Source: Microthyrium microscopicum (lineage: Eukaryota). From it: a DNA stretch of 64,000 bases. Of this stretch, positions 1-60,800 are shown piece by piece. Where the stretch lies: assembly GCA_010405405.1 (NCBI GenBank), contig MU004237.1, positions 1,003,345 to 1,067,344 on the forward strand, in the 5' to 3' direction. Each line of letters starts with the position of its first letter. Within the stretch, counting starts at the first letter, position 1. Both the position numbers and the translations under genes were made by a program. Below the pieces are notes generated by a model. That model saw only the letters and a program-made list of their open reading frames with translations, was not told the origin of the DNA and searched no databases.

Positions 1-2718
1 GAGCGATATAAATTCTTCGACTGGCTTGGCAATTCGCACTGGAAAGAAGCACAAAATTTTCATAACAACATGAGGAAGTATCGTGAACCAGAAACATGCT
101 CTTGGATCTTAAAGGACCAGAGCTGGAAAGATTGGGTTGGGTGTAAAACTCGATGTCTTTGGTAAGTCACCCGAACGAACGGAATGTTCTACGCACCCCA
201 AATACCCCAAATGTAACCATGTAAACTTGGAAGTGCCGTTTTTTACATGTTTTATGACAGGATCAGAGGTATGAAAACTATAAGCTTACAAGTGCTAGGA
301 TATACGGCATTCCAGGATCAGGGAAGTCTGTTCTAGCATCCTACGCAGTAGATGAAGCAAAGACTTTTCCTACCACTATCGGGGATTGCTCTGTCTATTA
401 CTACTGCTACTATGGTCATGCCCAGGATGAAGTAGGTCCTTTTCTCCGAGCCATCATTATTCAGCTATGTGGAAAAACTGGCCTTGATATCAATACATGT
501 CTCAAAACACTTTGCGGTGCATGGAATCACAACATCGAGCCTACCACAGACATTTTGCTGTCTGGCTTGGCAGAGATTTTGAGATCGCTACCTGTCATCT
601 ACGTGATCTTGGACGCTTTGGACGAAAGCCAAAATTCGCAAAATCTCGTAGCATTACTGCATGTGCTCGCAACTGAGGCGAGATTCATAACACTTCATAT
701 TCTGGTTACAAGTCGGCAAGAACGGAGAATTGAGGCTGGAATCACAAGGATAGACAAGTGTTCTAAGATTTCCATGGAGAATCCTCTTTTAGAAGAAGAT
801 ATTCGATGCTGTGTCAAATCCAAGCTACAATCTATTCTGCAATTTGAACAATGGCCGGTACAACTGCTGAAGGAGGTTGAAGAGATAGTTCCGCGAGAAG
901 CAAGAGGAATGTGAGTTTTAGACCCCAAGAGATTATCGACCGGACAGACTGGTCGATAAGATACATGGCGCACTCCCATCAAGTGCGATGGCTACCATCT
1001 GCTACGCTCTATAACGGAGGGTTCTATTTCCCCTAAATGCGTAGAATCATGGATTCTCCATCGAATGCGCTAGGAAGTAAAGCACTTATTCGTTATAGAG
1101 TGCGATGGGAGCACCCTATTGATGGGAGCGCAATCCAGTCTGTCAGCCGGTTGATTGACATGATTTTGCGTTCAAACTAATGTTCTAGCCTTCTAGGTTT
1201 CAATGGGCAGTTTGTCAAATTGAGGAGTTGAAAAGAATCGTGCCTGAACAAGAGGCCGTCTCGAGGGCACTTTCAAACCTTCCTAAGGATTTGAATTTAA
1301 CTTATCGCAGGGTCCTAGACCGGATTGAAGACTCCGATTTGATATTTGTCAAGCATGCCATGATGTGGATCATTCATGAACAGGCGGTTCAAGAAAATTG
1401 CACTCGGGAGCTAAGCCTTACGAGTGAACGATTGTTGGACCAGATTCGTGCGAGCATGAGCAATATTCGCCCCGACTTAGTGGATCGTTACTATAGCTTA
1501 TTAGACCTTCACGATCTATGTGGCTGTCTAATCCGGACCGGAAACAACAGTGTCGCGGAAGTTTCGTTCTCGCATTACACAGTGTATGAGTATCTCAGGA
1601 CGGCTCCTTTTGGTGAAGAACCAAACCTTGGATACTCTTTCAGCAGTCCGTCAGTGATTGCAATCCCATTGAAGATTGCCCTCTTTGATGTTATGAATCC
1701 AAAAGCATTTTCCGACATAAATCTTAGCACTCGGAGACCGACGGTTGATACCATGAGCTGTATGGAATATTTCAGACTTTTTGCAATTCACAGCATCAAT
1801 CATGAGGATGAGATAATAGGCAACGATGAGGAGTTGATGGGTCTCTGGCCTACAATACTGGACCCTTCGAAACCGTATTTTAAAGAGTTGTATGCTATCA
1901 TTCCAAGCATATCCTCTGGAGATTCGCCGCTGGAACAGCTGTGTTTGGGGGCCGGAACTATGATCGAGGAGGACTGGCGCAGTCTCGCACGGGTCGATAT
2001 GCAAAACGCTGATCCTGAGGCAATGCAGCTGCTGTGTATCATACTGCTAACCAATGGCTGCCTCGCTGAAAGATTCTTGGCCAAACACTCAGATTCGTAT
2101 CAAAGACTGCTCAAGATACATTTCAAGGCTCAGCTACGCATAGGAGAACGAGAGCATAAATCATTTGGCTTCTTCTCTCAAGACTTTGTTGGAACAATAT
2201 TTGAGTACCTTATGATTGGTTACCACAGTTGCGATCCTGTACTGGAATGGCTTCTCCATTTTGATCATACTACAGTCGACCTTGATCTGTCAATGATGCT
2301 GTTACTTTCACGGCCGTTCTCTGCCAAACGCCATCGATCGCGTCCAAGACCCAGTCTACTCAATAACTTGATATCAAAAGGGGCCAATGTTAATGTAGAC
2401 ACGTATTTTATGACACCGTTGCAGCTAGCATCATACAATGGCGATGACATGTCGGTAGAAGTTTTGATTGCGGCGCGGGCAGATCCGAATGCACTTCATA
2501 ATCAGCATGGGGTGCTTGAAAAGGAGAAGATAGAAACCGCGGAGCCGATCGGCGATAATAGTCCACTACGTTTGCTTCGAATGGGCCATGAGTATCACAA
2601 GGACCAAATCGGCAGACCGTGTGTACGTGAGAGCTACGGATCCTTCTTCATGCACAACAAAACGAGGGAATTATTGATAAAGGCAGGGGGCCGTGATTTT
2701 ACTCGGATGAGTACTTAG
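1..2718 (+). CDS. NACHT-NTPase / ankyrin-repeat protein (fungal NLR-like), 5'-truncated by the window; introns 162-298 and 911-1196
   Basis: The spliced frame gives REPETCSWIL...CLW|IYGIPGSGKS (Walker A), YVILDALDE (Walker B), ILVTSR, GM|FQWAVCQ, LPKDLNLTYRRVL and FSHYTVYEYL, then C-terminal ankyrin-like TPLQLAS...ADPN. Both introns have GT-AG boundaries. Confidence 0.9.
935..1155. repeat. ~220-bp fold-back (nested inverted repeat, MITE-like) element inside intron 2 of the NACHT gene
   Basis: Three arm pairs: ATCGACCGGACAGACTGG (935-952) with CCAGTCTGTCAGCCGGTTGAT (1135-1155); CACTCCCATCAA with TTGATGGGAGCG; CGCTCTATAACG with CGTTATAGAGTG. A homologous copy lies in opposite orientation at ~51113-51303. 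Confidence 0.8.
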
Positions 2719-37904: not shown

Positions 37905-39885
37905 TTATCGCGGTATTCGAAATGGGTGCGCCTCTGTGTTAAACACGTAGTCATCCAAACTGACGAGGTCCGGCTCGCTGAAGATAAGATAGAAATACTT
38001 CAACGTCTCCGCCATCCAGAAGCTCTCCATGCTATCCTCTTTTTCAGGATATGGCATTTGAGTATCCTTGATTGCTGCATTGGCAAAATCCGTTCTTGTG
38101 TACTTATCGATGGACTGAAACATCTCCCAAGCGATATCCTGAAGCTTCGTATCGCCAGTGATGCGGTAAAGATAGAGCATGCTTTCTATAGCCTCGGGGC
38201 GGAGGGCATACTTCCCGTCACCGATGTTGGTGAAAGCAGATTGCTGATGTGGATCCCAGTCGCAGGGCTCGAGAGTCGGACATGCATTCATTGAAAAGCG
38301 TTCTGGCATAATGCCAATTGGTGAGTGTCGATATGCCCATACGCAGCCGTTGGTCAGCTTTGTGCCCACATCTATATGAGTGTTGTTGCTGAATAGGCGA
38401 CCCCCAAGCAGGAACATACCGCCAGCAAAGCAACTAAGATGTTGGCCAGAGTTCTCGCGAGCAGCACCTGCATGTGCAACGCCACTGATCAAGATATCGG
38501 CTTGATCCGGTAATTGTGGCCGGAAAAGCATGTGTGTGATGGCTGTATCCATGGCATGCTCGTAGAGTCTTGCATATTGCGGCTCTTGCCCACCCAGAAG
38601 TTGATATGTTTTCCCGAAATATTCAAACGCTGAATCTGCCATAGCACCGAAGCTGAAAGATGTATCGAAGGTGAGATCTTGGGCTCTGACATCGACACCA
38701 ATTGGAAACATGCCGGGAAGTTGAGTGCGGTTCTGCTGTTCGTACAGTATGTTGGTAACTCTAGCCACGGCATCGTAGTAGCGCATATCTCCAGTAAGCT
38801 GAGAAAGCCTGGTGAACTCTAGGCTGAACGAGGCCATTTCAGCAATGATGCCCTGCTCTGCTGGAAGCTGATCTTCCGCGGTCTTTCTTGGATTCCAACG
38901 TGTGCAAGGCATCCGGTTTGGTGTATCGAAAGAAGCATAAATCATGTCGCCAACCTCAACAGCTTTTGCTAACAATCTTTCGTCCTTGCAGTCTGTTAAG
39001 TCGTAAGCAGCAAGAAATCCGCCGAGGTAGCGAATCGTAGTCTCGAACATATTGAGAGACTCTAGAGACGAGCTCTCTGGATTGAAGCTGATATTTGTTG
39101 CGGCGGCCACTGCCATTTCAAAGTCATCTTTCATGTCCATGAGCCAAAGGGTGTCGAGGTTGTCGACCAGCGTGGCGCCCCAACCTCCAAATGGATTCTT
39201 GGAGCCTCCAGAGATAGGAGCAAGTTCATCTGCTAACCAGGCTCTGTCTTTGTAAGATTGCCAAGCGCGTAGGAATACTGCTTTTACAGAAGCCTAAAGT
39301 TATCAGCACAGTTTTACAACATCGAAGCGTATATTGTCTTAGGTTTTGGTTAACACTGCATCCTCCGACCCGTCGCCTTCAATTGAACCCATAGCATTTG
39401 ATCAAGAACGCATGCTATGGGAGCCATCAAGTGAGATGGGAGCCACCGAGTCGTACGTATATCTTGAGTGGGAGAGCCAATGAGGACTTCCAGATGCCAT
39501 CAAGTTTTCTGTGTATTCTGAGGGGAAGTCTAACCTGTCGTTGTTTTCTAGTGATCTGTGCCGACACGGAAACAGTATTCGCATTCGATGCGAAATCATG
39601 CTGAATTTTGGGTAAGGTAAGTGATGTGCCAGTAGGCAGCGCAGCAAATTCCTGAACGGGATACTTCACGGGTACAGCCCTCCAGTCGAAGCCATTTTGA
39701 GGAGGAACGTATGCCGGAAATGGTGGTGAGTCGGGACACGCGCTGACGGGAAGGGAAGGAGCGGTGGAGGATGATTTTGATGGAGAGGCAGTTGGCAAGA
39801 AGCATTTATGTCCAACAAGAAAGAGGACATAGCAAACAGCAACGAGAGTGACAAGGTCCCAGCATTTCTTTCTAGGGAGTAGCAT
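37905..39885 (-). CDS. Class I alpha-1,2-mannosidase (GH47), type II membrane protein; 241-nt intron 39294-39534
   Basis: N-terminal TM segment, GGWGATLVDNLDTLW, FETTIRYLGGFL, LEFTRLSQLTGD, ADSAFEY, LRPEAIES, ESFWMAETLKY and FNTEAHP. Confidence 0.93.
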
Positions 39886-49657: not shown

Positions 49658-50901
49658 TCAATCCAGCTCCCATACAAGAGTCTCCCGCCCCTGGGTGCAC
49701 AAGATCGAATACGCGTTTCCTTCAAACGATTTGGCGGACAGAGAAAACCAATAATCCTTCTGACTATCTCGGAGCTGAAGAAATAGCGAAATGATACTGC
49801 GGCTCATCATGAGTCCTTGGACTTGAACGTGCACAAGCTGTTGCGGTGCAGCCTTGTCCTCAGCGTCTTGGGTGGACATACACGGTACTTCATATCGACA
49901 GATGTACTTGTCCACTTTGTCAGTCGTCTGAACACGCGGCGAATCCATCGAAAGCAATCCTAGCCATTCTAAAAGTTGCTCTTGATAGTCTTGATCTTTC
50001 ATTGCTCCTGACGATTTGGCAATGGGCACCACAGCATTCGGGATGTTTTGAATAGACAGGATGCATTCGCACAGTACCGAATTCTGATGTTCGATGGGGC
50101 ATGTGGTTCCCTCACCACGGCTCTTCTGGCCGCGATGAAAGTCATAAAAAAGCCATTTCACTGGCTCGTTGAGCACTCGAGTGAATGCCCAGACAATCCT
50201 ATCAAACCCCTTCTTGCCGCGAACCATCTGCGCAAGTCGTAGGTTGAGCTCTATCACTACCAAAAGGTTAAATCGTGTCCAGCAGTCCCAGAAAAGCACA
50301 TACCATAACGCGACTTGATATGCTTCCGCCCAAGGCTAGGAATTGCCCTGCCTGTCAGCCCACATCGTTCATAGGTGGGCTTGTCCAGTTCAAGTCTTAG
50401 AATCCCTATTCGAGTCGTCAGACTTATTCCTGGTCAGCTGCAGGCGATTTACCATCTTTTAAAGAAAAGCGGTTGTCGATATGTGGTCGACCTTCTGAGA
50501 GCAGAAATATGTTGCCTACAAATTATTAGAAGATGATCAGAATGGCTGGGCTGATAGTAAACATACCAGTCTTGATATAATAATTGAAAAAGTCTCCGGA
50601 TATTACCTCCAGTAATGTCATGGTTACCTTGTGGTATTCTGTTTGTAATGACTCTGGTGTGATGCTGGATTTAACAACCTCCCAGAGCTCGTGGGGAAGG
50701 ATCATGTCAACCTAAAGGTCTTAGCTCTGAAGTGAAATCTACATGTAATTTACTCACTGTATGACATGCTGCATTAGAGCTTATACTTGAGAAAGGTTTG
50801 CGCCGCTTTGATACATTTTTGGGATCAATTTCTGTTGGTAATTCAAGGTGTGTGAAGTAACATGGCGAACTGCGGATGGTTTGCGATTGCGAGAGAAACA
50901 T
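49658..50901 (-). CDS. RPP40: RNase P/MRP subunit p40-like protein, multi-exon
   Basis: IELNLRLAQMVRGKKGFDRIVWAF...WLFYD, LLEWLGLLSMDSPRV...VDKYICRYEVP and upstream FLLSEGR; this is the fungal Rpp40 pattern as I recall it. Confidence 0.75.
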
Positions 50902-51112
50902 GATGACAACTCCCGGAGCTACACCGCTTAGATGTCTCAGAGTTTTCAGTTCCGTCTCGAGGTCAATATGACATTTGTGGTTGTAAACGATAGAACTGTT
51001 TGATGGTTGAAGAGATCGAGGACATGAAAGGGACGCTAGCTCTTCATTGGGCTTAGCGTACCTCACGCAAGGCTGGCAGCCTTGCTGCGATATGCCAACT
51101 GATGGATAAAAT

Positions 51113-51303
51113 GACTGGCGTTCTCCCATCAGCGTCGATGACTCCCACGATCGCTACTAATTAGAAGGTGTTATAGTTCCCATCACATTCGATAAAATGT
51201 CCATGTCTAAACGCGCTCGATGGTAAATAAAGCATTCGATAGTAGATCGTCTTATATGGGAGCCATCGCACTCGCTGGGAGCGCGCCATTTATTTTGTCG
51301 ACC
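51113..51303 (-). repeat. Second copy of the ~200-bp element found in the NACHT intron (opposite orientation)
   Basis: The reverse complement GTCGACAAAATAAATGGCGCGCTCCCAGCGAGTGCGATGGCTCCCAT...CATGGA...ATCGAATG...GATGGGAG...CCAGTC is colinear with ~951-1140 (GTCGATAAGATACATGGCGCACTCCCATCAAGTGCGATGGCTACCAT...CATGGA...ATCGAATG...GATGGGAG...CCAGTC). Confidence 0.75.
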
Positions 51304-51958
51304 CCTCGATGTGCCATTTATTCGCTTTATTCAGCTTAGAAGCGCTTACGTCTTAGGAATTTGTTAATGCCAATGAAATAAATGGCCCCTTCTACTCAGA
51401 AGGTATGGTGGTAGATATCCCGGTCTGTAAAAGGTCAGCTATGAATTGGTTATTTGTGTAGTCTCATGCTATCACAATGGAAGGCAAGAATGATAACCCC
51501 TGTTTATGGTTAGACTTGTAAAGAAATATCTTCTGGCACATAGTACTCTAAGAGTGGAAATAACTTTCATTTATTATATCTGCAACATAGGACAAGGAGA
51601 TAGCTTTATGCTCTCAAAAGTCCTGTATTAACAGCTCTCGGTTTTGTATAGGAATGATACAAATAGAAAGGCAGCTAATGTACAGTTGTTTGTTGAAATT
51701 TTTAAGACTCTTCTAATCAACGTCCAGTCCCTAATCCCCCTGCCCAACTAGCTTTACATGTCAAATTTGTATGACTAGAATTCTGTGAGCTGTTGGGCTT
51801 ATTATTTCGTTCTCTTAAGCTCAACAAGACATTAGATCCGTGATAATACAAAGATTTGCGCGACGAAGACGTTCAGGCCCAGTGTTGATTAGAGTGGAAA
51901 GTCGGGTTAGAAAAACGTTTATATATTTGTTGAAATGGCAAATTGTGGTTATCTAACT

Positions 51959-52090
51959 GCGTTAGTAGTGTAGGTGAGGGATTTAATCTTTCCGCGATTA
52001 TAAGTTACAAGTCTAACCATAAACAGGGGTTATCATTCTTGCCTTCCATTGTGATAGCATGAGACCGGAGTTCGAGTCTCCGCTAACGCA
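51959..52090 (+). tRNA. tRNA-Gly(TCC) with a 53-nt spliceosomal-type insert in the D-loop (51974-52026) and a 7-nt canonical intron (52049-52055)
   Basis: Acceptor stem GCGTTAG/CTAACGC is perfect. The T-arm is CGGAG-TTCGAGT-CTCCG. After removing the insert the D-arm reads GTGT-AGGGGTTA-TCAT. The anticodon arm is CTTGC-CT-TCC-A^A-GCATG (one T.T mismatch) and the discriminator is A. Confidence 0.85.
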
Positions 52091-52098
52091 TCTTAATG

Positions 52099-52105
52099 TT
52101 TTTTT
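52099..52105 (+). terminator. RNA polymerase III terminator (T7) of the tRNA-Gly gene
   Basis: A run of 7 T starts 9 nt after the discriminator base. Confidence 0.7.
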
Positions 52106-52451
52106 GTTTAATTCTTTTTTGATATCAGAACGAAAAGTGTTGCAGGTTCCATAGACACTTTCTTTTTTGAAGATGTATTGACTTTGGGGTGGGCTGCTCA
52201 TGCTTTTGGCCTGCAATAGCGTGCAATGTGCAGTATTCTCAACGTCAAGTACAAGTGTGTAGCTTTAGATTCCAGGATTGATATACAGTGAATAAGATGC
52301 TATAAGGATAATTTACTGATATATGTAGTAAAAGATAATATTATATCTAGGAGTTAGAATAAGACTCAAGGGAAGTGCCAGGGACGCCGTAGTACATATC
52401 ATTTTGGCAGCATACTCCACAATGCACAGGTACATGACTGTAGATCCACTG

Positions 52452-53106
52452 CCTTATCGAGTACGATGGAAGACTGAGCGTCTTTCAATTTACGTGGAGC
52501 GCTGGCAGACATCGCACTTGCTGGGAGTGCGCTTTCTAAATCCCGTTCTCGTATCGCAACATGTGAGCTTTATGCGTATTTCCAACAAGTACAATGGCAA
52601 GAACAGTACATATAATTTATCAAGAGCGCTGGCGCCCATTGCACTTGATGGGAGTTCCCCGAGCCACTTCCTTAATTCGCACCGCTAATAGTAGATTCCT
52701 GTAGTCTTCCATTAAGTGTGATGGCAAGAACAGTACATCTAGTTTATCAAGAGTGCTGGCGCCCATTGCACTTGATGGGAATACGCCTACCTAGTATCTT
52801 AGTTTGCCACTTGATGGCGGATTTCTGCTGAGTTCCCATCAAGAGTGATGATCAAGTAAGTATATGCTATCTTTTCGAAGGCGTTTGGCGGACATCGCAC
52901 TCGGTGAGAATATGCTTCTATGGCTTCTCTTCAGGCCGAAAGAGATCTAAGATGCGCGCATACTCTCAGCAAGAGCGATGGCAAAGTATATATATATACT
53001 TTATCAAGTGCGCTGGCAGACATCGCACTTGATGAGAGACTGCTCCTAATCTTGGAACTCTGGAAGAGACATTGTGGATTGATCCCATCGAGTACTCTGG
53101 CTGCCA
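52452..53106. repeat. Tandem array of ~5 units (period ~127-130 bp), each a conserved palindromic core plus a variable ~50-nt segment
   Basis: GCTGGC..CATYGCACTTGATGGGA cores start at 52501, 52628, 52755, 52884 and 53012. Partner motifs CCCATCAAGWGYGATGG lie near 52456, 52584, 52711, 52838, 52968 and 53087. Confidence 0.85.
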
Positions 53107-56069
53107 TAAGATGCATAAATAATCTGTTCTGCATAAAAGATGTTAGGAAAGTTAGATAGCATACAGTATTGATCCAGGCTGGTAGCGAAATGTGTGGTCA
53201 ATCACTGAGTTATGGTTAAGATAATGTTGCTATATCCTTAGAGATTTGTTATGATATCTGTATAACTGTCTTCAAAGTAGCCTCTACAAGATTCATCGAG
53301 ATTATAATCTTATATTTCCTCTTGGTAAATTTCGGAACAGCAATATGATCAAGCGGCGGTTTTGAATACGCAGTCTCAATCGTCTCCACTTTCTCCCCTA
53401 AATTCAATGATATGTGCAGATTTGTTCTTTCCTTTTTTCAATTTTGTAAGCTGCTGATTTAACGTCGTAAATACTACTCTAAGAAAGAACAGGCATGAGA
53501 TAAGCGTTCCTTCTCCTCGACCACAATCATAAATTCTCACAGCACATAAGCACCTGGAACGATTCCTGGACAGTTCTTTCGCACAATATAATCCAACGGA
53601 ACTGATTCATTATTCCGCGAACCTGGCATAACGATATAGATACTAGAATCTTAACGACATCGGTTCAGAACGATGGGTTTCCCCGAAACTTGGAACTTTG
53701 TCAACTGCCGTATAGTTTCCGGTAAGGTGTCATTAATCACCATTTCAGGTCAAGTAAAGACTCGGATCTCTCGTATGTCGTGGATGGGTCTCCATCACTT
53801 ACAGTTGCTCGTAGCCAAGTATGCAGATGAGTACCTATCAGAGTGATTCATATTGGGTTATGCTTTGCCGATTGGAGTCACGACGACTTCTACATAAATC
53901 AGTGCTTAACATGCATTTCCAACCAACGGCCTGGGAAAAACAAAGTTATATCTGAAAAGGCATGAGCAATCAAACAATGGAAAACAAGCCAAAAGGATAT
54001 GTCGGTCTTCTACATCCTACATATGCTCCAGTCATGATAAAGACCGAAGCATGTACAGTTTCCGGATGGAGTGCTAACTGAGCGAAGAAGTTCGCCCTTT
54101 AAAGAGAAAGGCGCGGAGGCTGGCGAAGAGAAGATAATATGGTATCGAACAGACAGGTCGTTGAATCAGAGCGAAGTCTACATAAATAAGGTACCTAAGA
54201 TATAAATAGAGGCCCATATCGACCCATTTTCCAAAAAATCCACGCTGTTCCTTCGGGATTTCATACAATTTTCCAGCATATTTAGCAATATATTCGTTAA
54301 CCAACAAATATGAAGTGTAAGCTATTGCGCAATGAACTTCCCCAAACAGTTTCTAACGACTGCCCAGTATCAACTAGCCTCGCTTTCGTCACTCTTGTGG
54401 ACAGTGTTCTTGCTGGAGTCGGGTATATTGTAGCCGAGTTTTACATAATTCGATAACTCATCGTTGCAAAGAGCTGACTTGAATTATCACCCAGCTCTTC
54501 CGAATATGCTAAGAGACCATGTCTGCCGTTTTCATGTGGCAAGAAGAACTGGCAAGCATCTGCGCGTGCTAAGAGATTTCCTATCGAGAAACGAGCGCCT
54601 GAAGTCACAATTGTAGCCGGACAGGGGCGTCCATCTCCTTGTATTGATTATATGCACAAGACTGGAGTTACTCGAAAGAACTTACAATGCAAATCGAGCT
54701 TCAGCGTGCTTGGAAGTTATCCCTTGGAGACACTCATTTAGTTTAGTACGTCGATTCATCACAATCACATACGGCTTTGAATCATACCAACCTTGGAAGG
54801 TTTCTCTGACCTCCTATGCCTCTTGAAGCCTCTCACCTTCCTAATTCCAGCGCTATGATATCTTCGGAACCACTGCCGTCAAAATAAACTTTCATTTTCC
54901 AGTTACTCGCCTAGCATCATCTTGTCAAGACCCTGTGTAGCACATTGAATCACATGCGTGCCCACCCAGACTTCCATCACAGACTAAAATCCGTTGGCCC
55001 GCAATACCGAAGTTAAAACATATTACCTTCCATGGTTTAGCCGACGACTTCTGCGTTGGAACAAGTAGCACCTTGAAGTTCCGCACAGTGCTGGTGTCGG
55101 TGCTATGTCGGTGACGGGATTGAAAATCTGGAGAAAGGGCCGAATCGCGGAAATACTGTCTGGATGATGAGCCACTTGATGTTAGAGGGGCTGATCATAT
55201 CCCATGAGCAGATCAAGAACGGTGGAAGTGGTGAAGATATGCAGGTGCAGATTCAGAGGGTGATGAACGGGATATTCTATGTCGAGTCATGGATGTGCGT
55301 GATGTGTGATGTTGGTGTGGTGAAAATTGAGCGGGGTGGGATCTGCGTTGATGTTGCTATGCTATTAGGACATAGGAGAACGTTACCTGGAGCCTGACAA
55401 TGAGATATTACTTGAAAAAGTGCTGTATTGCTTGAAGGGAAGAGTGGTGGAGGAAGATGGGTTGGCTTGCAGTCTGATGTGTACTAATTGGGAAGCCACG
55501 CAAGGGATTCAAAAGCATGTGAATATATACAAGTGAAACACGCATACCTATAGCAGATGGCCTTTTTGAATGTTTGACCATTGTAGATAGATTGTGATAA
55601 TGTGACTACTCCCCATCATGTCTTCTTCATCCTTACTATTTCTGTGTTTGTTTCTTAAACCCGTATTACGTGGCGATTGTCATGGCATGATACAAGACCC
55701 TACTTCCACGGAGCACATGGATAATTCTCCTAGCTTACCATAAGTTCTAAAAAATACATCGACGGAACAACCGGAAAATTATCTGATCAGACACGAATTC
55801 TCCGACCCCATATATCAATCTCAAATCGTCGTCCGTAGTTGGTCAATATACGCCACAAGGAAGATACATCTGCTCCCTATTTCCTAAAAGAAGATTACTG
55901 ACTACCCCAATACTGACAATACGCTCTAGCTATACCATAATCGCACAACCTTTGAGCATACCAAAATTACTCAATCTTAAGCTCCAACAGTAGCACCAAT
56001 GACAACAATGGAAGCTTCATGTATATAATTTTACCTAGTCGGGCCTTGTTCGAAACGCGTAGTTGTCGC

Positions 56070-57063
56070 TTATCTTAGTTTCTCTCAGACGTAGCAAGCT
56101 GCTTTAAATAGTCACTATAGCTCCCTACCCCTATTAGCACCCCTGTCAACACCCCTGTAATATTTTAAAGCAGCTTACTACGTCTGAGTAACTCTTATTT
56201 ACTTTTAATGAAGGCTCTGTTAACTTTTGTTAACGAATCCTCTTATTTTTAAATAATAATAACGAAGCTAATCTAGCTTTATAAACCTTACCGTTACTAT
56301 TATTCTATTCGTCTTATTCTCCTCTTTTCTTTGTTTTTGTTAGATTCTTTCTATCTCTTTTAGTTGTCTTATAAAGCTTTAGTGACTAAAGTCAATATTT
56401 ATAATTTTCAGGCCAAAACTTCTAACTTAAATAACTTAATAACCATAGCAGCTATAAACAAATAAACAAAACGAGCATAATTCTTAGCTCCTCTTTAAAA
56501 TAAGCGCACTTTCGGAATTTCGATTCGTCTACTTTTGGTAAAGTAAGTCTTCAAAAAGATTAAAAAAGCTTCTATTCCGATTACCTCTTTAGTTTAACAA
56601 CAACCACATTTTATTACTATTTATCTATATGTGCTTATAGATCTCGACGAGCTAAATTGCCTCATTCTTTTAGATTTACTATATCTCTTATAGTTGTTAA
56701 TTAAACAAAGGGTAACGAAATAATGAAATAGTTAACTAGGCTTAGCATTTTTTTATCTCTACGGAAATGACATCTTAGAAGCTAAAGGGTATTAGATTAG
56801 CTTTAAAATAGGCTCTTCTTAAAGCTAAGGTTCTAATCTATAATTTAAATTTGGCACATTTTTGATAACTATAGTAGTTAATTAATAGTTTATAAAAATA
56901 CTTAGAAGAGGCTAAAAAGTTAAGCCGAGATATTAATAAACGAAATAAGAGTCTCTCAGACTGCGTAGCAAAAAGTTAGAACGAGTAGAACGAGATCTAA
57001 TTAGCTAGATCTACTACCCCTGTAGACGCTAAAATTTGCTCGCAGTCTGACTAAGTGAGATAA
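56070..57063. mobile_element. RIP-like degenerate DNA-transposon relic with an 8-bp TSD and subterminal hairpins
   Basis: Abrupt AT-rich, TpA-rich, CpA/TpG-poor block with no ORF. It is flanked by the direct repeat GTTGTCGC (56062-56069 and 57064-57071) and has inverted termini TTATCT...AGATAA. Hairpins lie at 56084-56188 and 56956-57050. Confidence 0.65.
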
Positions 57064-57684
57064 GTTGTCGCGTCTTTTTGGACGAGAGACGCGCAACGCG
57101 TTTTTGGTGATGGGAGGCTGGACCTGGGCGTTGCGGTAGCAAGGTTTCTTTGCTTTTTAGCCGCAGCAGGGCTGAAGGGCCGACTTGGATGGCTTGACCT
57201 TTGAGTTGAATATCGCTGTGCGGCTCTGCTCAAGAATCTGAAAATAGTTTGTGATTTACATGGACTGATCGAATCTTTCATGATGGCCTGTTTTGCAAGA
57301 AGTATATCAGCGTGGCTTTGGCTGCAGAGTGTGTAGAATTGGGGTGTTGATGCATAAGGTGCTGGGACTGCGAATGTCTTCTATGGGTGGATTTTCCTGG
57401 CTATGGAGCGTATTGCGCATGATGGTAGAGAATGAGGTTATAAGGCGGTTCGTGATTGACTCTTTCTGTAGGTTCTGAGACATTTTATTGTCTGGCGAGA
57501 TGTCCCGTTGGAACTTTGTGTTGCCTATTGGTCATGTATTTTACGCAGGCAAGATAGAGCCGATCAGTGAGATTTTGCCGAGAAGTCGACTCTTACAAAT
57601 GGGAATGACCCGTTGGGAAAGAGCTTGAAGAGAATCTAGGCGAAGCTCTAGAGGCTTGAGCGAAGGATTCAGGCGAACTACCTA

Positions 57685-57831
57685 CCGTTTTTACCCTTTC
57701 AGTTGGGATAGGTTAGCGCGGTTTTATAGGCGAGGTTTGTCCGTGAGAAACAGCGAGTCCCTGGCTAAATTCATAGCGCCACCCGCAAGAAAAAGCGCGC
57801 TAACCTATCCCAACTGAAAGGGTAAAAACGG
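57685..57831. mobile_element. MITE, Tc1/mariner-type (TA-flanked, ~36-bp perfect TIRs)
   Basis: CTACCGTTTTTACCCTTTCAGTTGGGATAGGTTAGCGCG (57682-57720) is the exact reverse complement of 57796-57834. The ends read TA|CCGT...ACGG|TA. Confidence 0.82.
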
Positions 57832-60800
57832 TAGATACGCCAGCCAACTTCTACAATTAGCGTTATTAGTGATAGGCGTGAAAATATAGAAATGCAGCAC
57901 CTGAAAGTTGTATCTTGGAAGTACGTACGGGCAAGGTATAGACTCGAATTATATGACACGGCTATTTTACACATTACTTGTGCAATTTTGAGAGGTGAAA
58001 CATATGGCAACGACATACGGTATCGATGGTTGCGAAAGGACTCATGACAACCAGATTACGAATCAAGAAAGTATTGCGCCGTTAGTGGCGGAACGGGCTT
58101 TGATAACGTTGGTTCATGGGCTCTAGAACTTCGCATTCTCGCGCTAGAAGCTTGTCACCACGGGATGAAACGCGACGAGAGTTTAGGATATCTCGACCAG
58201 GCGAACTCTGAGCCTTTAGAGTTGATAATCGCCAATTCACAGAAGCTTCCAATATGAGCATATTGATAATGTTATAGGCACATGAGCAAACCTATTGGTA
58301 ACATTGCATCATGTCTGTGACTCAAGCTAGAAAAAGCTGACGTACACCGTATAAAGAGTATTGATATACATCATCTGTACTCATAATGGGCGGTTGTTAT
58401 CAGTTGACATTTCTGAAACTGTATATCTGTGTCAGTGGAGAGCTGGAATGGTGGGAAGTATTCGGTAGGCTTGAAGTTAGAAAAAGTTTCTTGTACACGG
58501 CAAATGCCTTTGAAATGCAATGACCTGTCAACATTGACCACCGTTGATTATCGGTTGGCGTGTAGTAGTTTGTGTCAAATTCAAATGCTAGATTGGCAAT
58601 TGGTTAGAAAGCGCATAAGCGTAGTGTCATAGCGGGAACGGTGATCCGCGACTAGTATTTTTCTCTCTCCACGAGGATCTGCGCGTGGTGCTCACTGCTG
58701 GACAACCTCTGACCCAAAACTGGGTCGTTGGTATCTAGTACTTACGCTACTGTACGTGATGCTGTAATTAGGTACGAAGGTACGAATGCGAATGTGCGTA
58801 AGAGAATGTGCGTAAGAGAAGTTGTTTGTATAGGTATTGTAACAATACTTAGTATATTGTTTCAACTTTAATAGGAAAATAATGGGACCATACAATGGAA
58901 TGATGAAAGGACAGAAAGATGTATAGTGAACGTCCTAGAGACTCGAGAGAATAATGAATAGGGTACCGTAACGGAGGTAGGTCGAGATCCTTTGACTACT
59001 CGGCAAGTGGATTCGGAACTTTTGACTCGAAATTATATTTCCTTTAGTGTTGTTCGGGACTGTGGGAGAGCGCAGGAGGAATCAGGGGTTTCAAGCCACT
59101 AATGTACAATGAAAGATGGTTTCATGCAACAACAAAAATCGAGATGGAAAGTCTGCAGACGTATCAATTTCAGATACTCCTCGGCTTTAATAGGATTGAG
59201 AGTCATATAAGAAATATGACACTCGCTAGATAAAGGCTACAAATTGTGGAACAGGCGAATCCCTATAGCATTCAGATTAATATTTGCAATCGAGAAAGCG
59301 TTGGTTCTCGTGGTTGGAGAGAGTCAAACATCAATGACAGAGTCTTGTCTGAAACAGCATACCAAACGTGATGAATCGACATTCAACATGTGTGCAAGTT
59401 CAGCTGTGATTGGGATGACGAGCATACCAGGTAGAAACCATGTCTATGCTGTATATCTAATGGTGACATGTCTACAAGAGATGAACCTGAGTTGACCATA
59501 CGGTAATTATCTCTTCGTCATCGGGGTTTTTGATACCAACCTCATGTTTTATAGATCGCCAATATTCCAGTCTGGACTTTGAAGCAGTGATTGAAGTAAA
59601 GCTGGAGAAAAAACAAAGGGACCAATTGAGAATGGTTAAGATGAGCGCTGTCAAGCTCAAAGAGGAATAGCTCATGGCCAATGACCCCTGAATCCCGCCT
59701 TGGCCGCCTCGCCAGTGGCCGGCAGGGATGCAAAGTTGAGGCAGCGCAGCGAATAGGGAAAAAGACTGTTACTGGTGAAAAGTGGCCAGGCGAAAAAGGG
59801 GGTTCCATAATTCTATGCAGCCGTGGAAATGTTGAAACTGCAATGGTCAGCCAAAAGAAATGGCAACTAGGGATTGGGATATCATACAATCAGACTTGTA
59901 GGGTCAATCGACGAGTGAAGCTGAGAGTTTATGTATAGCCGTTGACAATCATGGACGCAAAGTCCAACAGTTGTCGTCGTTGGTAACGGATTGAAGGTTG
60001 ATTGATCAAATTAAAGCCAGCCCAGTCCCTGTTGAGCACGTCGAGAGCGCAGTGTGGTGGTGATTGTTCTGGCAGTTGATCCCTGCTTTGCTGCACCTGC
60101 CACGACGGTACAGGCCTTTTTTGGTTTGGAGCCACTCTTGTTGCGCGTGTGTGTCCGCCGCCCGTTCTCCTTAGGACTCAGGAACCAAAGAGGATCAAGA
60201 CTCCAGCGCAAGCCCAGCCTGCAAGCCAGAAAGCCAGTGAGCCAGGCCAAGGAACGAGCACGAGGCAAGTCCTTCTGAAGTTCTGGTCGTCGTTTCCCAT
60301 CACAGACTCCAAGACCCTTTGACCTTTCCAAATTGGCCAGGTACCTCCTTCCATCCTTTTCCAACATCGTGCCTTCCCCATCACATCGCGCAAACACTTC
60401 GCTCCTTCCTTCTTCCGCCAACGTTGCGAGGAAACTGCGACCACCACTACTTCGCGCCTTGGCACTCCCTCAACCAAACCATCAACACCATCACAACAAC
60501 TTCAAGTCAACTCAACTCCTCAACAAACTCTTTCAACATTGATTTGCTGACGCGCTGCCTTTGGATTCTGGAGACCATATACCCCCCACATCACCTCCTT
60601 ACCAGAACACCGAGTCCCAATCGACGCCTGCATCATCCCTAATCCCTAATCCCTCAACCCATCAACAACCAACAACTTCAACCCCTGGAAATAGGTTGCC
60701 TTCGCTACCATCCCAGTTCATCTATACCTCCCGGCTCCCCCGTGCTGTCCAAGTCGCCTTGCGCTTTTCTGCCCTGACCCAAGTGCGTGGATCGCATTCT

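Follow-up and report, generated by a model that had tools for sequence, protein, structure and literature searches.

The genome of the little-studied Dothideomycete Microthyrium microscopicum contains a short tandem array in which palindromic cores alternate with spacers of nearly constant length and nearly random sequence. This locus raises the question whether the array represents a new kind of RNA or a regulatory locus, or whether it is a tandem repeat derived from a transposable element (TE). The window analyzed here comprises 64,000 nucleotides of contig MU004237.1, and all coordinates refer to its first letter as position 1. A preliminary description of the array had offered three candidate roles, namely a phased array of protein-binding sites, a milRNA-like hairpin-RNA precursor and the subterminal repeats of a transposon. 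The organization of the array, its relation to other repeats in the window, the pairing of its arms and the divergence of its units were therefore analyzed.

Organization of the tandem array

The array is located in intergenic, ORF-poor surroundings and consists of five full units and a truncated sixth one (Table 1). In a repeat search a 42-nt segment was found in five copies with start-to-start distances of 127, 127, 129 and 128 bp, in agreement with the about five units at a spacing of 127-130 bp given in the preliminary description. The right arms end at 52468, 52596, 52723, 52850, 52980 and 53099, and the last interval is indeed shortened to 119 bp as had been stated. At default stringency, TRF reported only the two central units (52594-52850, period 127, 78% matches). 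A profile built from the five array units matched each of them with high significance (Table 1). The units are thus arranged head to tail with a constant period, as in TE-derived tandem repeats.

Each unit is composed, in this order, of a right arm (R), a loop of about 41 nt (loop 1), a left arm (L) and a spacer. The consensus of R is TCCCATCAAGWGYGATGG, and L (CATYGCACTTGATGGGAG) is its inverse. Loop 1 ends in A' (ATCAAGAGCGCTGG), the third, forward copy of the motif. The distance between R and L is 41-43 nt in the array units, and the spacers of units 1 to 5 have lengths of 53, 53, 53, 54 and 45 nt. As already noted previously, the motif CCATC-N6-GATGG is present in three copies per conserved core of about 75 bp. 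A search of the window for the 16-nt motif CCATCAAGTGCGATGG with up to three mismatches yielded 12 matches compared to 0.58 expected, a number reached by none of 100 shuffled sequences. Nine of these matches are inside the array, on both strands, and the other three are all found in loci of the dispersed element described below.

Table 1. Units of the tandem array and copies of the dispersed element in the window.
Feature	Position	Strand	Evidence or remarks
Whole array	52450..53106	none	Sequence, repeat search, unit profile (E 1e-28 to 1e-32)
Unit 1	52450..52577	+	R1 ends at 52468, L1 starts at 52510
Unit 2	52578..52704	+	R2 ends at 52596, L2 starts at 52637
Unit 3	52705..52831	+	R3 ends at 52723, L3 starts at 52764; nearest to unit 2 (core identity 0.89)
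Unit 4	52832..52960	+	R4 ends at 52850, L4 starts at 52893; arms with GAGA instead of GGGA
Unit 5	52961..53081	+	R5 ends at 52980, L5 starts at 53021; spacer shortened to 45 nt
Truncated unit 6	53082..53106	+	Right arm R6 only (TCCCATCGAGTACTCTGG...)
m1, full copy of the element	51096..51306	+	Near-palindromic, about 210 bp; high-copy in the genome
m2, full copy of the element	946..1155	-	In an annotated intron (911-1196, +, 286 nt) of a NACHT/ankyrin gene
Degenerate copy of the element	39372..39510	none	Inside the 241-nt intron 39534..39294 (minus) of a GH47 mannosidase gene

In the flanks of the array (52300-52451 and 53100-53260) no degenerate extra units were detected, as the best local alignments were no better than those of shuffled sequences (fractions 0.17 and 0.26). 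Short-word BLAST of the spacers against the rest of the window gave chance-level matches only (10-15 nt, E at least 0.37); the significant matches outside the array in this search concerned the arms alone and were located at 968-992 and 51264-51286. In metagenomes, a scan with a degenerate 23-nt arm pattern gave no hits, and the 18-nt arm pattern was found at 76 loci compared to roughly 100 expected by chance according to a hand estimate. Twelve of these 76 metagenome loci matched the unit profile at E <=1e-3, at the seeded site only and without a second motif copy, and no relatives of the array were found among them. The marine metagenome contig L067 carries at 930-1200 an unrelated 79-bp tandem repeat that holds the 18-nt arm pattern three times; by the unit profile it has no further likeness to the array.

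A dispersed MITE-like element in the window

Besides the array, the window contains two full copies (m1 and m2) and one degenerate copy of a short dispersed element. m1 and m2 have opposite orientations, align over about 209 bp and have a 21-nt terminal string in common (2 matches compared to 0.01 expected). Both copies are self-complementary with minus-strand self matches of a profile built from them (E 8e-16 and 5e-13), and by eye the ends of m1 are about 70% complementary over about 50 nt. The element therefore possesses terminal inverted repeats in both full copies and, being non-coding and only about 210 bp long, also has the size of a MITE.

For an assessment of copy number, Logan contigs from three DNA runs of the source sample were placed on 51100-53300 at a likeness of at least 80%, with 166-261 contig records per run. 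In the three runs the summed depth over m1 (51100-51321, three bins) amounted to 32-113 times that of the array bins. Summed depth of contigs does not equal copy number and is read here only as tens to about a hundred copies. Full-length pieces of the element differ at 36 of 199 positions, i.e. they are about 82% identical. The loose ends of the contigs cluster at 51108, 51155, 51256/7 and 51299-51306, and the agreement of the flank consensus at these ends is only about 0.5, as is the case for unrelated flanks. High depth together with unrelated flanks argues for a high-copy MITE-like family with many dispersed copies, the number of which is given by summed depth and is not exact. From m1 and m2, the two full copies, no clear target-site duplication could be read, and among the 39 ORFs of at least 60 aa that overlap 53.1-60.5 kb none gave a match in Pfam, so that no transposase remnants were found downstream of the array. 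Since neither a target-site duplication nor exact termini nor an autonomous partner are defined, the MITE label rests on structure and copy number, and by these the element is a MITE-like family. This family of the M. microscopicum genome is undescribed; a search of the literature on this species and transposable elements revealed nothing on its repeats.

Two of the three copies in the window form most of two unusually long annotated introns of 286 and 241 nt (Table 1), and in this way the element family shapes gene structure. m2 occupies 210 nt of the 286-nt intron. Aligned with m1, this copy shows homology at positions 40-243 of the 286-nt intron only, so that the homology ends 39 nt and 43 nt away from the splice sites. 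As the remaining 76 nt correspond to the length of an ordinary fungal intron, the copies look like insertions into existing introns. The intron in the GH47 gene starts with the non-consensus sequence GTTAGA. The third copy, m1, is situated about 200-400 bp upstream of the annotated start of the Rpp40 gene (50901). An open frame at 50707-51153 on the minus strand has an ATG at 51129 within the GATGGGAG motif of the element, and the annotated Rpp40 start lies further down.

Similarity of the array cores to one arm of the element

The profile of the five array units and that of the element, the latter built from m1 and m2 only, were compared with the window in both directions. Outside the array, the unit profile matched at 959-999 (minus strand, E 1.9e-7) and 51215-51294 (plus strand, E 9.7e-7), furthermore at 51110-51197 (minus strand, E 9e-4) and 1056-1154 (plus strand, E 4e-3) and weakly at 39424-39447. 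Conversely, positions 107-199 of the MITE profile matched unit 1 (52445-52538, E 1.3e-6) and positions 163-202 matched unit 5 (53013-53052, E 0.012). Matches in minus orientation were obtained with profile positions 20-119 to unit 3 (52691-52791, E 6.2e-5), 23-103 to 52453-52534 (E 0.002) and 17-105 to unit 2 (52579-52668, E 0.0024). Apart from that in unit 5, the alignments between core and element span about 80-100 nt, and the array unit thus appears to share homology with a portion of a mobile element from its own genome.

The layout of an element arm is also that of a core. Its inner motif is of the R type; after about 42 nt come a motif of the A' type (ATGGGAGC) and the L arm, with GYGCGCC behind it. 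The distance from the R motif to the L arm in the element (about 42 nt, from 51222 to 51264) agrees with that in the array, and a dispersed copy 50 kb away has an almost identical left arm (95.7% over 23 nt). Into the spacers, the alignments with the element extend by no more than about 15 nt, and for the central 25-40 nt of every spacer the element has no counterpart. Where the dispersed copies read ATGGGAGC, the array cores read GCGCTGGC; this variant is common to the cores and absent in the dispersed copies, which argues for one local ancestor of the cores and against repeated insertions. As judged from these profile matches and the common layout, the arms of the array together with a conserved block of about 90 nt are homologous to one arm of the high-copy element.

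The array itself is present at baseline depth, i.e. as a single copy at a likeness of at least 80%, with a small depth excess below one contig's worth in the bins 52432-52579 and 52950-53097. No inverted repeat bracketing the array was found. At baseline depth and without such a repeat, the array with its flanks does not form a mobile multi-copy unit of the type of DTC84, a repeat which is discussed further below.

Pairing of the array arms

As a class, the arms of the array are complementary, with 80.9% of 110 cells paired. Covariation of the arms hairpin by hairpin, to which the joint change of both arms described for unit 4 might point, was not confirmed by our data. When the 3' arms were shuffled among the units, 80.6±1.9% of the cells were still paired and 255 of 500 shuffles were as high as the observed arrangement, with five units giving low power. 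Likewise, the covariation score was 0.200 compared to 0.215 after shuffling, at the same low power of five units. Exhaustive permutation of the arm partners, both for L(i)-R(i+1) and for R(i)-L(i), resulted in fractions of 0.38-0.84 and thus in no partner preference. The change that had been reported to affect both arms of unit 4 together is real as sequence, since the strings TGAGAATATGC and GCATACTCTCA are present; at the site where the other left arms have GGGA, L4 and L5 have GAGA, and among the right arms R5 alone has TCTC instead of TCCC. However, R5 pairs equally well with L1, L4 and L5 (19 of 24 Watson-Crick pairs each).

Mismatches of the G·U type on the plus strand numbered 13 and those on the minus strand (A·C on the plus strand) 8, so there is no significant strand bias (p 0.38), and the whole array folds alike on both strands (z -4.17 and -4.07). 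Four of the five spacer-type and three of the five core-type hairpins are better than shuffled sequences (z -2.4 to -5.6); for the fifth spacer no hairpin is formed (z +0.75), and two alternative arm pairings compete with each other. With alternating inverted copies of a palindromic motif, the formation of hairpins is inevitable. Rfam gave no match at gathering score in the whole window, and for 51800-53400 three chance-level matches (E 3.7-8.3), none of them within the array. A C/D or H/ACA snoRNA was considered and rejected, as the would-be boxes found by eye read UGAUGG and CUGG and not UGAUGA and CUGA. The stretch is contained in four DNA runs of one study, and none of the runs listed as containing it is an RNA run. 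Run X5, which is guessed to be RNA and carries another organism code, contains next to none of the words of this stretch; its contigs cover only the three MITE bins and 52950-53097 with non-identical pieces and are thus uninformative on expression.

An array of this kind could be a source of hairpin RNA or siRNA, in which case it would be transcribed and stems of about 17-22 bp would be diced into small RNAs that silence the MITE family or act as milRNAs. The hairpins that surpass shuffled sequences, the homology of the arms to a high-copy element and the one complementary double change (GGGA/GAGA and TCCC/TCTC) are in line with such a function, and the accessible parts of the plant literature describe MITE-derived hairpins that give small RNAs (PMC8428829, PMC7038664, PMC8728187). 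However, partner-specific covariation and an asymmetry between G·U and A·C were both absent, the two strands fold alike, and loop 1 is conserved like the stems. The competing pairings, the absence of hairpin 5 and the empty Rfam search also speak against an RNA function, which we consider unlikely. Rather, the pairing in the array is the pattern of a family of DNA palindromes and not that of an RNA under structural selection, with the low power inherent in five units. Among the roles offered initially, subterminal repeats of a transposon therefore come closest to our results by virtue of the homology to an element arm, whereas a milRNA-like precursor finds no support in covariation, G·U bias or strand-specific folding.

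Unequal divergence of cores and spacers

The mean pairwise identity is 0.71 for the cores (shuffle null 0.49) and, with gaps, 0.507 for the spacers (null 0.484±0.012; z about 1.9), in accordance with the earlier observation that the segments between the cores are much more diverged. Loop 1, with an identity of 0.665, is near the value of the cores. By column, identity is 0.74-0.82 in the arms vs 0.32-0.41 in the spacer, so that divergence along the units is far from the uniform decay of an ordinary minisatellite; the region of the left arm is the best-conserved part of the unit (0.76-0.82). Even between units 2 and 3 only 8 of 74 core positions differ, compared to 31 of 53 spacer positions (Fisher p 1.3e-8), which means that core and spacer divergence are more than 5-fold apart. 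The similarity among units is mosaic, as units 1 and 5 have an identical 22-nt stretch around the L arm, yet only 0.59 identity in loop 1. The conserved block of about 90 nt is contiguous and includes loop 1, a pattern expected for a homologous TE segment and not for conservation of stems only. RIP as the cause of spacer decay was ruled out, since the indices of the array (0.77 and 1.55) give no RIP signature.

The unequal divergence together with the fixed spacing, from which the preliminary description inferred selection, may reflect a constraint on the array. One form of it would be a phased protein-binding array, in which a hypothetical dimeric protein, be it a transposase of the family, a domesticated derivative or a host factor, would sit on the palindromic motif and the phase of 127-129 bp and the spacer length would be kept for the sake of spacing. 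The 5+6+5 palindrome with three copies per unit, the high conservation of the left arm, also in comparison with the copy 50 kb away, and the first four spacers, which are constant in length and near random in sequence, would all be understandable on these grounds. However, the motif also occurs in dispersed intronic copies, the location of which does not suggest regulation, the array has just five units in a single copy, and conservation extends over loop 1 with its A' copy and its non-motif sequence. We regard a binding array of this type as improbable. A related idea is that the array is a domesticated piece of a MITE, which serves either as a phased landing pad for a transposase or a derived DNA-binding protein or as a multi-hairpin small-RNA locus directed against the family. 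Selection would then hold the cores of about 90 nt and the exact spacer length of 53 nt and leave the spacer sequence free; we have little confidence in such a domestication.

It is also conceivable that the spacers were never homologous, i.e. that the cores are separate insertions or templated copies of a mini-element at a fixed distance and the spacers are target or filler DNA. The gapped identity of the spacers, which barely exceeds its null, the shuffle p of 0.06 obtained with the inner 37 nt of spacers 1 to 4 and the equal spacer lengths are compatible with this scenario. Without gaps, however, spacer identity is 0.32-0.33 vs 0.256 in the shuffle null (p about 0.005), so that a trace of common origin is left, mostly in units 2-3 and 3-4. 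Units 2 and 3 agree at 22 of 53 spacer positions and at 17 of 37 positions of the inner part, and the derived letters common to the cores (GCGCTGGC vs ATGGGAGC) lead back to one local ancestor. We know of no mechanism that spaces insertions at such fixed distances and consider this scenario very unlikely. Still less probable is an ordinary minisatellite in uniform neutral decay and with no link to a mobile element, since this would suit a short, single-copy array in an intergenic, ORF-poor stretch with no RIP signature but neither the strongly non-uniform divergence nor the homology of the cores to a dispersed high-copy element.

Probable origin of the array

Overall, we think it probable that the array is a transposon-derived tandem repeat that originated from one arm of the MITE-like element. 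A new kind of RNA or a regulatory locus is less likely than such a TE-derived repeat, which is the most likely explanation. One arm of the element (R motif, loop of about 41 nt, A' and L, together about 90 nt) would have been multiplied head to tail in place along with about 40 nt of adjoining DNA. The direct and inverted copies of the motif may have favoured this amplification, which would have proceeded by unequal exchange or by slippage during replication and resulted in the five-and-a-bit units of 127-129 bp. Subsequently, the cores could have been kept alike by homology-dependent gene conversion or by unequal exchange among them. The fact that the central pair of units is most alike, the contiguous conserved block and the mosaic similarity fit conversion or exchange among the cores. 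By analogy with transposon ends, the sequence CTCCCATC-N6-GATGG(GAG), which is repeated in the element arms, is most likely a binding site of the cognate transposase and as such a candidate.

Several observations do not fit easily with a TE-derived repeat. The first four spacers have kept lengths of 53, 53, 53 and 54 nt in spite of their near-random sequence. As neutral decay should add insertions and deletions, a spacing constraint or spacers that were never homologous retain some probability. Furthermore, the contrast between core and spacer exists even in the youngest pair, units 2 and 3, where gene conversion has to be assumed. The change from GGGA to GAGA in L4 and L5, accompanied by that from TCCC to TCTC in R5, would be expected from selection for pairing or from repair templated by a hairpin. 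In addition, the homology between core and element is weak (E 1.3e-6 to 2.4e-3, with a profile of two copies). The conservation of the cores next to near-random spacers of fixed length constitutes the residual, unexplained puzzle of the array. This contrast offers a small and clean case for the study of homogenisation versus constraint in TE-derived tandem repeats. It is also of value for annotation, as what appears to be a repeat-spacer or hairpin array probably goes back to an arm of a high-copy MITE-like family that is undescribed.

Comparison with known repeats

In foldback elements such as Drosophila FB, and in En/Spm with its 12-bp TnpA motifs, the ends consist of a short motif repeated many times in direct and inverted orientation, and unequal exchange makes such regions grow and shrink. 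By analogy, the array resembles foldback and subterminal repeats in having a short motif repeated in both orientations. It differs from them in that there is no adjacent inverted second array, no terminal sequence and no transposase gene, and in that its unit of 128 bp is much longer.

Tandem repeats that lie within MITEs or derive from them have been documented, with at most five units and a palindrome where these join (PMC3879986, in the part of the text available to us). The accessible description of DTC84 from the clam Donax trunculus and of pearl-type elements has in common with the present locus a short head-to-tail array of at most about five units that is tied to a MITE family, a palindrome at or near the unit junctions and units that differ by diagnostic changes (PMC3879986). 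As far as described there, the DTC84 array occupies the middle of the mobile element and moves with it in many copies, whereas the array reported here is single copy and has no flanking inverted-repeat cassette. Compared to the same partial account of DTC84, the present unit combines an element arm with non-element DNA, and it occurs in a fungus instead of a mollusc. Satellite-like arrays are also carried by Helentrons, according to the available portion of a further report (PMC7492417).

In the accessible part of the work on introner-like elements of Dothideomycetes (PMC4457414), the same fungal class is concerned, and there is a parallel in that a short multi-copy element fills most of two long introns here. 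Unlike the introner-like elements as described in that part, homology of the copies excludes the splice sites (intron positions 40-243 of 286), one copy precedes a start codon and is outside the annotated introns, and identity among the copies amounts to about 82%, so that they are not near-identical. An introner reading of the family was rejected, as the homology does not comprise a whole intron with its splice sites. The MITE-derived hairpin small-RNA loci of plants, as far as the available sections of PMC8428829 and PMC7038664 go, also have inverted arms of MITE origin that are able to fold. In comparison with those sections, the present locus is a tandem array and not a single foldback, and is without covariation.

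Further features of the window

The ORFs of the window include a GH47 mannosidase, an Rpp40 subunit, an MFS transporter and a sulfate permease, and three of the encoded proteins match M. microscopicum proteins at NCBI with 100% identity. For the GH47 protein the next-best match is 77% identical, so no close relative is at hand. Upstream of the array, a perfect 61-nt inverted repeat was found at 51461-51521 and 52005-52065 (100% complementary, 483 nt apart), the right arm of which overlaps a tRNA-like gene. Both 61-nt arms contain break points of the contigs from the DNA runs, and in each run one arm-containing bin is at about 2.3-2.4 times the baseline (51470-51543 in run X2 and 51988-52061 in runs X4 and X1). 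Breaks and excess depth argue that the 61-nt repeat is real; the orientation of the middle 483 bp cannot be fixed from such contigs.

The tRNA-like gene is located at 51958-52092 on the plus strand, and the distance from its end to 52452 is 360 bp, which confirms the position of the array about 360 bp downstream of a tRNA as described initially. ARAGORN found nothing at default settings; with introns allowed, it called a tRNA-His(GTG) that has a weak D arm and is interrupted at position 34/35 by an intron of 58 nt. Rfam gave a chance-level tRNA-like match to the 3' half, and a run of T follows. This may be a damaged or rearranged tRNA gene.

The region 51200-60000 comprises about 9 kb without an ORF of at least 120 aa and has a lower G+C content (0.39-0.44). 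At 56-58 kb, RIP-like indices of 1.31 and 0.92 were obtained. Two close inverted repeats, one of 47 nt at 96% (57679-57725 and 57791-57837) and one of 25 nt at 96% (56084-56108 and 56164-56188), may be other small foldback elements.
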